DNA from: a virus
Lineage: Duplodnaviria; Heunggongvirae; Uroviricota; Caudoviricetes
Reading direction: 5' to 3' (one strand)
DNA length: 10,045 nucleotides
Virus record (IMG/VR): IMGVR_UViG_2703718777_000022
Position numbers and translations under genes: made by a program. How positions within the stretch are numbered: position 1 is the first letter of the stretch; each line of letters opens with the position of its first letter. Below, piece by piece: positions 5,400 through 5,479 of the stretch. Below the pieces are notes generated by a model that had not been told where the DNA came from, did not search any database, and was given only the letters and a program-made list of their open reading frames with translations.

Positions 5400-5479
5400 T
5401 GTGAGGACAACATGCCTCACAAACATGTTGACTTCAAGCCTCATTGTGAGTACTAATAAATAAAGTCCTCACAATGAGT
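5400..5479. promoter_or_regulatory. operator-like repeat array with a candidate rightward promoter, in the divergent region between the Mnt-like gene and the small-ORF/Rha genes
   Basis: tgtgagg (5400-5406) and cctcaca (5415-5421) form a palindrome. ctcattgtgag (5440-5450) is the exact reverse complement of ctcacaatgag (5469-5479). caacatg and catgttg form a further inverted pair at 5408-5430. A -35-like TTGACT sits at 5428-5433, followed 17-18 bp later by an A/T-rich stretch (tactaataaataaa) that could supply a -10; the -10 hexamer itself is ambiguous. Confidence 0.45.

Follow-up and report, generated by a model that had tools for sequence, protein, structure and literature searches.

Introduction

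The immI region of phage P22 is an immunity region secondary to immC, in which mnt, arc, and sar control ant (PMC2629481, PMC11016777). Mnt binds as a tetramer to a symmetric site that has the half-site GTGGACC (PMC2726951). Binding to mixed arrangements of sites is described for another ribbon-helix-helix (RHH) protein, the omega dimer (ParB_pSM19035), which recognizes short asymmetric heptads in direct, inverted, and everted orientations over promoters with similar affinity (PMC9499535). This report concerns an array of repeats in a 10,045-nucleotide stretch of Caudoviricetes DNA (IMG/VR record IMGVR_UViG_2703718777_000022), which is referred to throughout as the window. The array occupies the 116-bp divergent spacer (5383–5498) between arc109 on the left (− strand) and the orf58 operon on the right (+ strand). 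Its repeat motifs are very probably three binding sites for two neighboring RHH repressors, placed over two back-to-back promoters. We assign the array, with good confidence, as the operator region of a secondary-immunity switch, similar to P22 immI, in an integrated Escherichia coli prophage.

Control of an antirepressor-type gene by RHH operators placed over divergent promoters is already known as a kind of system. A literature search found no paper describing this module. A close homologue of Arc109 is absent from sequenced phage isolates, in which the tblastn matches are distant, partial, and at most 41% identical. No characterized phage can therefore be cited for the module, and it is unstudied. 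DNA searches of the window against the phage collection by megablast and blastn gave no informative match.

Results

Organization of the repeat array

A preliminary description of the window reported at least four TGTGAG/CTCACA half-sites in alternating orientation within 80 bp, and this arrangement is borne out. The TGTGAG hexamer is found at 5400–5405 (+), 5416–5421 (−), 5445–5450 (+), and 5468–5473 (−), which places four of the 10 copies in the window within 74 bp. The TGTGAGG/CCTCACA palindrome noted earlier is present at 5400–5406/5415–5421 with 7 of 7 positions complementary. The exact 11-bp inverted pair also exists, with its first arm CTCATTGTGAG at 5440–5450, but the second arm CTCACAATGAG is located at 5468–5478 and not at 5469–5479. 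This pair extends to 15-nt arms (5440–5454/5464–5478) that are 93% complementary. The nested pair of CAACATG (5408–5414) and CATGTTG (5424–5430) is there in the window, but it is not kept in relatives, where only 2 to 6 of the 7 positions are complementary. The nested pair looks incidental and outside the system.

Relatives of the locus were gathered from E. coli genomes, from contigs encoding Arc109 homologues (42–99% identity), and by scans with orf58 alignments. The scans of viral contigs were the most useful and contributed 27 loci, compared to 4 from genome contigs and 5 from metagenomes. The resulting comparison set consists of 31 non-redundant loci from Escherichia, Salmonella, Erwinia, Yersinia, Serratia, Sodalis, Mixta, and metagenomes. 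We considered whether the repeats could have arisen by chance or from the composition of an AT-rich spacer, and six other TGTGAG copies do occur in the window. However, none of 1000 first-order Markov simulations gave at least four TGTGAG copies in 80 bp, and the largest simulated cluster was 2. CTCAC/GTGAG-type sites are also kept across the Escherichia, Salmonella, Erwinia, Yersinia, Serratia, Sodalis, and Mixta loci. The simulations, the conservation, and the protein/operator covariation described below rule out a chance origin, and we give it practically no credence.

The repeated half-site of the preliminary description stands as the functional unit, but the unit is 8 bp rather than a 6-bp hexamer, and its copies are arranged as two 17-bp Mnt-like operators and one everted pair. 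The half-site has two forms. R is GYGAGKAC (complement GTMCTCRC), and L is GCCTCRC, which is roughly the complement of R. The aligned spacers contain the near-invariant blocks GTGAG(T/G/A)AC, TGCCTC(A/G)C, GTTGAC(T/A)TCAAG, CCTC(A/G)C-N-G(T/C)GAGTAC, and (T/C)CTC(G/A)C-N-nTGAG(T/A)AC, and the sequence between these blocks drifts. The mean majority fraction is 0.94 inside the elements compared to 0.74 outside, in loci whose Arc109 homologues are 42–81% identical. The half-site positions named a priori in the preliminary description give 0.92 compared to 0.79 for the rest of the spacer in nine non-redundant relatives (Mann-Whitney p = 9e-5).

The two 17-bp operators are O2 and O3. O2 (AGCCTCAT-T-GTGAGTAC; 5437–5453) has the core CTCRC-N-GYGAG and is invariant at 13 of its 17 positions. 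It fills the spacer of the proposed rightward promoter (P_R) together with the first 3 nt of the −10 element, and its center is fixed 12–13 bp after the −35 element in all class-1 loci, the operator class that includes the window. O3 (GTCCTCAC-A-ATGAGTAC; 5465–5481) covers approximately +3 to +19 of P_R and is invariant at 12 of 17 positions. Both are L-N1-R dyads in the format of the P22 Mnt operator, which is symmetric with 7–8-bp half-sites and a central base pair. Symmetric A..T to G..C changes in O2 convert CTCAC-N-GTGAG to CTCGC-N-GCGAG and keep the palindrome in three loci (L012, L013, and L016), as would be expected of a dyad-symmetric protein site.

O1 (5401–5420) departs from the Mnt-type format because it is an everted operator, R-N5-L. 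The R half-site GTGAGGAC (5401–5408; consensus GYGAGKAC) lies at about +1 of the proposed leftward promoter (P_L) and has a mean conservation of 0.92 in the nine loci of class 1a, the subclass to which the window belongs. The L half-site GCCTCAC (5414–5420) has 6 of 7 positions invariant, and the 5-nt gap between the halves is invariant in all class-1a loci. In class 1b (L011, L017, L038, L044, and L045), where the long Arc protein starts with MSREDPQLRVRIP, a third full palindrome GCCTCAC-G-GTGAGG abuts the −35 element in the place of O1. An RHH dimer is two-fold symmetric, so a flipped asymmetric half-site would meet an unchanged interface, only with the two subunits exchanged. In the Arc complex, the axis of each dimer is about 5–5.5 bp from the operator center. 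With Arc-like axes, the dimer centers would be 10–11 bp apart in O2 and O3, and the same separation would be obtained in O1 only if its spacer is 5 nt. A 5-nt spacer would thus put the O1 half-site centers about one helical turn apart, which matches the invariant value seen.

A search for further copies of the operator with no more than one core mismatch found none elsewhere in the window. At the same threshold, the 41.8-kb locus, which comprises the prophage and the host DNA around it, has just two other core matches: one falls within the VapE gene and the other in the host sequence. The TGTGAG at 4907–4912 was rejected as an operator; it is the GTG-AGT-AAA start of arc58 and has no partner half-site. 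Both arc start codons resemble the R half-site, with GTGAGTAA at the arc58 start (4908–4915) and ATGAGCAA on the − strand at the arc109 start (5375–5382), to be compared with GTGAGTAC and ATGAGTAC in O2 and O3. This likeness is probably a by-product of shared M/V-S-K coding because no partner half-site is present at either start.

The Arc-family proteins

Two genes next to the array encode Arc-family RHH proteins. arc109 (5053–5382, − strand) encodes a long protein of 109 residues (Pfam PF03869, E 2.9e-9) with the strand PQLRVRIP and a helical carboxy-terminal half. arc58 (4908–5084, + strand) encodes a short protein of 58 residues (Pfam PF03869, E 1.4e-9) and closes the DNA-polymerase operon. 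Residues 4–51 of Arc109 align to residues 2–49 of P22 Mnt (E 0.0024), which is the sole significant Mnt alignment, and the RHH domain also aligns to AmrZ. The Mnt alignment puts Arc109 Q8, R10, and R12 opposite Mnt H6, N8, and R10, which we take to be the DNA-contact residues defined by the work of the Sauer laboratory. The strand DPQLRVRI is invariant in 19 Arc109 homologues that diverge to 42% (42–99% identity). Residues 54–104 are helical in an AlphaFold2 (AF2) monomer model with a predicted local distance difference test (pLDDT) score of 72–86, in a model of low overall confidence (pLDDT 72, predicted template modeling score 0.28). Arc58 and Arc109 are 60% identical over 52 residues, the first 14 residues after the initiator are the same, and the recognition strands are identical. 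Arc58 is without the helical carboxy-terminal half of Arc109. The PHROG label "partition protein ATPase" matches the RHH domain only, and a PADLOC search assigned no defense family to arc109.

arc58 and arc109 are convergent and their 3′ ends overlap by 32 bp (5053–5084). Most of the relatives retrieved also have convergent, overlapping 3′ ends at this place. The GTG start of arc58 (4908) overlaps the TGA stop of the VRR-NUC gene (4909–4911) as GTGA, which implies that arc58 is translationally coupled to the replication operon. A terminator-like hairpin on the − strand (5027–5002) lies inside arc58. The convergent overlap and this hairpin suggest that the replication operon and the mnt-like gene affect each other by transcriptional interference or in an antisense manner. 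arc109 is monocistronic, with no downstream open reading frame (ORF) in the same operon. A type II toxin-antitoxin RHH operator was rejected because no toxin gene is co-transcribed with arc109, which is monocistronic and convergent with arc58. An RHH centromere array of the ParG/omega type was also rejected because the prophage is integrated and there is no ParA among its 32 annotated genes.

Covariation of operators and recognition strands

The 31 loci fall into two classes. In class 1 (21 loci), the long Arc protein contains PQLRVRI, the short Arc protein contains PQLR[V/I/A]RIP, and the spacer contains CTCRC/GYGAG sites and lacks CCACnGTGG. In class 2 (10 loci), the corresponding strands are QMK[I/V]R and LQFKLR, and the spacer has three ACCACNGTGGT palindromes and no CTCRC. 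The class-2 palindromes are (A/C)ACCAC-N-GTGGT(T/G) and take the places of the three class-1 sites with respect to the TTGAC and orf58 that both classes share. The operator class matches the β-strand class in 31 of 31 loci with no exception. The alternate, DNA-facing residues are Q-R-R in class 1 compared to Q-K-R in class 2, and the short and long proteins agree within each class. In the window, one half-site type is found at all three positions and one recognition strand is found in both RHH proteins. The class-2 operator ACCAC-G-GTGGT resembles the Mnt operator GGTCCAC-G-GTGGACC. We regard the covariation as the decisive evidence for the Arc proteins as the likely readers of the sites.

A comparison of the window with the prophage of an O121 strain (L003, class 2) delimits an exchangeable specificity cassette at 4912–5487 that contains arc58, arc109, and the operators and promoters. 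Identity between the two sequences is 98.9% as far as position 4911 and 98.5% from position 5488 onward, and no alignment is possible between these points. The exchanged block ends 4 nt into arc58 on one side and at the orf58 ribosome-binding site on the other, and the next 600 bp on each side are 98.5–98.9% identical. The orf58 product carries a single protein accession across the two operator classes, and Rha is encoded within the 98.5%-identical flank, so neither of them sets the specificity. The proposal of the preliminary description that this is a multi-operator region for RHH proteins over a promoter is supported by the Arc-family identity of the flanking genes, the footprint of conservation, the covariation, and the cassette exchange.

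These comparisons bear on the idea that the sites are operators for some other protein, namely the CI-like XRE repressor, the Rha-like protein, the orf58 product, or a host factor, and that the Arc genes are mere neighbors. The CI-like repressor does differ between the same two prophages, being XRE protein WP_000606440.1 in the window prophage and LexA-family protein WP_001046700.1 in the class-2 O121 prophage. This pair therefore cannot exclude CI, and the argument rests on the repeats in the cI-cro spacer. That spacer, where CI must bind, is devoid of CTCAC/GTGAG sites and instead has three unrelated repeats of 17 nt, GTTAAGnnAnCTAAAC. The shared orf58 accession and the position of Rha in the near-identical flank speak against these two proteins, and the edges of the exchanged cassette fall at the arc58 start and the orf58 ribosome-binding site. 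There is no LexA-box-like CTGT-N8-ACAG in 5383–5498, and the class-2 sites look like the operator bound by Mnt, itself an RHH protein (PMC2726951). A binder other than the Arc proteins is very unlikely on this evidence.

The cI-cro repeats belong to the same prophage and lie outside the window at 12298–12361 of L001, between the Cro-like and XRE/CI-like genes. They are direct repeats of 17 nt, GTTAAGnnAnCTAAAC(C/T), in three copies at spacings of 22 and 25 bp, and are presumably the primary immunity operators.

The proposed promoters

The −35-like TTGACT that the preliminary description saw bracketed by the array is located at 5428–5433 (+), and its TTGAC is invariant in every related locus (31 of 31 non-redundant loci, both operator classes). 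The single candidate promoter proposed there keeps this −35 element but is probably one of two back-to-back promoters. Sequence and alignments point to TACTAA (5451–5456, + strand), 17 bp after TTGACT, as the −10 element of P_R. Relatives have TACATT, TACAGT, TACACT, TACTCT, or TACTTT in this register. The P_R start is predicted near 5463, and the Shine-Dalgarno sequence AAGG of orf58 is at 5487–5490. On the − strand, the proposed P_L −35 element is TTGAAG (5432–5437), where the block GTTGACTTCAAG is invariant or nearly so, and the proposed −10 element is CATGTT (5409–5414), 17 bp from TTGAAG, again judged from sequence and alignments. The P_L −10 pattern is CATnnT in class 1a and CATAAT in class 1b and class 2. 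The P_L start is predicted near 5402, and the arc109 Shine-Dalgarno sequence AAGGGA is 6 nt before the ATG. In this layout, the −35 hexamers of P_R and P_L overlap by 2 bp, the P_R −10 element is bracketed by O2 and O3, and the P_L −10 element is bracketed by the two halves of O1.

The predicted position of the P_R start is also relevant to whether the O2/O3 inverted repeat functions as an RNA hairpin or DNA cruciform in the orf58 leader, that is, as an attenuator, a stability element, or an antisense target. If both arms are transcribed, 5436–5500 folds at −19.1 kcal/mol (z = −4.95 compared to shuffles), and comparable folds can be drawn in all relatives. However, two copies of any palindrome pair with each other, and such a fold therefore arises automatically. 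Between O3 and the reverse complement of O2, complementarity is limited to 9–16 of 17 and is not maintained, and the loop varies with the O2–O3 spacing of 22–28 bp. The predicted +1 near 5463 is in the loop, which would leave the 5′ arm outside the transcript, and the leader from there folds at −1.7 to −8.1 kcal/mol. There is no terminator-like site or T run in 5200–5700, and there is no Rfam match. A hairpin also leaves unexplained both O1, which is upstream of the −35 element, and the joint switch of the three sites with the Arc β-strand. After the window and 14 relatives were folded and the cross-complementarity was counted, an RNA hairpin was rejected as the primary function, and we consider a nucleic acid fold a highly improbable explanation of the array.

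The presumed controlled operon

The first gene of the presumed controlled operon is orf58 (5499–5675, + strand), which encodes a conserved helical hairpin. Homologues are found from E. coli to Erwinia, Yersinia, and Serratia with 38–98% identity, and the AF2 model is a two-helix hairpin with a pLDDT of 80. Searches for orf58 returned no Pfam, PHROG, or PADLOC family, and a PDB fold search gave no match with E < 1. A Rha/antirepressor-like gene (5735–6541, + strand) is the presumed regulated cargo (Pfam Phage_pRha, E 2.3e-10; PHROG anti-repressor families, E 7e-14). The slot after orf58 is swappable among the relatives and holds Rha, KilA-N, KilA-N plus ANT, Rha plus ANT, or Bro-N (L006–L016). 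The cargo slot is often followed by an HTH_17/PrtN-like (Xis/AlpA-type) gene. Following the array, there is no terminator-like site on the + strand before 7839, and the operon may therefore extend through the SNF2 and HTH_17 (Xis-like) genes.

The proposed mechanism

We infer that the half-sites would be read by Q8, R10, and R12 of the β-ribbon PQLRVRIP in the adjacent Arc proteins. Arc109 is the proposed Mnt analogue and is probably a tetramer formed through its helical carboxy-terminal half. Arc109 bound to O2, which covers the promoter spacer and −10 element, and to O3 at +3 to +19 would shut P_R. P_R would drive orf58, the Rha/antirepressor-like gene in its predicted antirepressor role, and possibly the downstream SNF2 and Xis-like genes. 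Arc109 bound to O1, which brackets the P_L −10 element and +1, would autoregulate arc109. Arc58, produced from the end of the replication operon, would be expected on the same sites during lytic growth.

Several points weigh against this assignment. The window P_R −10 element, TACTAA, is weak and is without the usually essential final T. A strict σ70 consensus scan of 5200–5700 called no promoter, so the promoter model rests on conservation. Because the strict scan calls neither promoter and the P_R −10 element is without the final T, the promoter model is the least secure part of the account. The helical carboxy-terminal half of Arc109 in the AF2 model is compatible with a Mnt-like oligomerization domain but is not evidence for one, and it has no sequence similarity to the Mnt carboxy terminus. 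The O2–O3 spacing of 22–28 bp among the loci means that there is no fixed phasing for cooperativity between these operators. An everted operator such as O1 is without a tested precedent among Mnt/Arc-type proteins. Finally, the covariation is partly confounded by linkage, since the genes and sites form one cassette and the matches are not independent events. Despite the linkage, the change is confined to the palindromes in a conserved promoter scaffold.

The roles of the two proteins on these operators could be divided differently. One Arc protein may be the true repressor and Arc58 its antagonist, acting through mixed dimers that cannot tetramerize or as a weak competitor, so that the replication operon de-represses P_R. 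The RHH domains share 60% identity, their strands are the same, and their core residues are alike, which makes heterodimers conceivable, and Arc58 does not have the helical carboxy-terminal half. The convergent genes overlap by 32 bp in the window and have overlapping 3′ ends in most fetched relatives, which suggests mutual interference. On the other hand, Arc, the small RHH protein of P22, itself represses Pant and Pmnt (PMC11016777). The short and long RHH domains of class 2 are much less alike outside the DNA-facing residues, a pattern more in keeping with conservation of DNA specificity than with conservation of a dimer interface. We consider this division of roles unlikely.

Within the assignment of the array as the operator region of a secondary-immunity switch, a more detailed scheme is offered tentatively, and its parts taken jointly are rather unlikely. 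In this two-length repressor switch, a long tetramerizing RHH protein and a short dimer-only paralogue with the same strand would compete or co-assemble on the three operators. The everted operator would exploit the two-fold symmetry of the RHH dimer, and the short form would be made from the replication operon, which would be transcribed head-on into the gene for the long form. Arc58 would then remodel or poison the long repressor through mixed dimers and lost avidity, and flip the antirepressor/excision operon.

The prophage and distribution of the module

The window matches, with 100% identity, a prophage carried by E. coli strain 2014C-3061 and by other Shiga toxin-producing E. coli (STEC) isolates from cattle and humans. 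The prophage is integrated, with its integrase adjoining yfhL. Besides a CI/Cro-type region of its own, it contains a replication module (DNA-polymerase/VRR-NUC/SNF2), a Q antiterminator, and genes for lysis and the head. The module is present in only 19 of 5,426 complete E. coli genomes. In E. coli LH50-c (L004, 947–1075), the annotation gives the long class-2 Arc gene as a truncated pseudogene, the spacer before orf58 is reduced to about 80 bp, and the third palindrome is gone. This locus is possibly a decayed copy of the switch.

The window also contains a 199-residue ORF (1446–2045, − strand) that is opposed to the surrounding replication operon and is located directly upstream of the DNA polymerase gene. 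Pfam and PADLOC searches assigned this ORF to no family. In L010, a TIR-domain (CAP12-PCTIR_TIR) gene is found just upstream of the polymerase gene. The site upstream of the polymerase gene may be a moron or defense-gene hotspot.

Discussion

The array probably silences an antirepressor-like gene, and maybe the SNF2 and Xis-like genes, in the prophages of STEC and other Enterobacterales, and it therefore bears on prophage induction. The module would be a second, naturally diversified example of the P22 Mnt/Arc system, which is a main model for β-sheet DNA recognition. Independently of the two-length scheme, the Q-R-R/CTCAC and Q-K-R/ACCAC pairs would present a clean single-residue switch in the recognition code for reading DNA by a β-ribbon. 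The two allelic cassettes on the same scaffold (CTCAC-N-GTGAG and ACCAC-N-GTGGT) are a ready-made specificity-swap experiment, and the everted O1 with its invariant 5-bp spacer is a test of whether a tethered RHH tetramer uses flipped half-sites. As far as established, the new features are the strand common to the long and short RHH proteins, the three operators of one type, the everted operator, the relocation of arc to the replication operon, and the two natural specificity alleles.

The P22 layout used for comparison was read from the immI record X01916. This sequence has the Pant −35 element TTGACA at 302–307, a 21-bp dyad at 308–328, the −10 element at 325–330, and then AGGTCCAC-G-GTGGACCT at 337–353. 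We take the 21-bp dyad to be the Arc operator, which the record does not annotate. The window shares with immI a long RHH gene that is divergent from an operon with an antirepressor-type gene, a second, short RHH protein, and a position secondary to a CI/Cro region. As at Pant, one operator is in the −35/−10 spacer and one is just after the predicted start. The O2 center is 12 bp after the −35 element compared to 11 in P22, and the O3 center is 17 bp after the −10 element compared to 15 in P22 and 13 in the L002 variant with a 4-bp deletion. The 17-bp dyads with a CAC-N-GTG core are like the P22 Mnt operator.

The differences from P22 are in the specificity, the promoters, and the placement of the genes. 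One motif and a common recognition strand are found here, whereas the Arc and Mnt operators of P22 differ. The window has a third operator, O1, on the mnt-like side, which is everted in its subclass. The proposed −35 hexamers overlap each other here, whereas the Pant −35 element overlaps the Pmnt −10 element in P22. The first gene of the ant-like operon is the non-RHH helical hairpin orf58, at the position where arc sits in P22, and the arc-like gene instead ends the replication operon, converging on the mnt-like gene. In place of P22 Ant, the cargo is Rha, KilA-N, or Bro-N, and no sar-like RNA was found at this locus. Arc109 resembles Mnt over the RHH domain only.

Omega is a precedent for the everted O1 because it binds its sites in mixed orientations. 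The omega heptad is WATCACW, which resembles CTCACA. Omega differs in using contiguous 7-bp repeats in long arrays and in also binding centromeres, whereas the half-sites here are 8 bp, are spaced about one helical turn apart, and have no ParA partner. The cassette exchange is comparable to the lambdoid immunity exchanges imm434 and imm21, in which a repressor gene and its operators are swapped as one block between near-identical phages. In the window, the exchanged block encodes two RHH proteins rather than the helix-turn-helix proteins CI and Cro, and it is a secondary rather than the primary immunity region.

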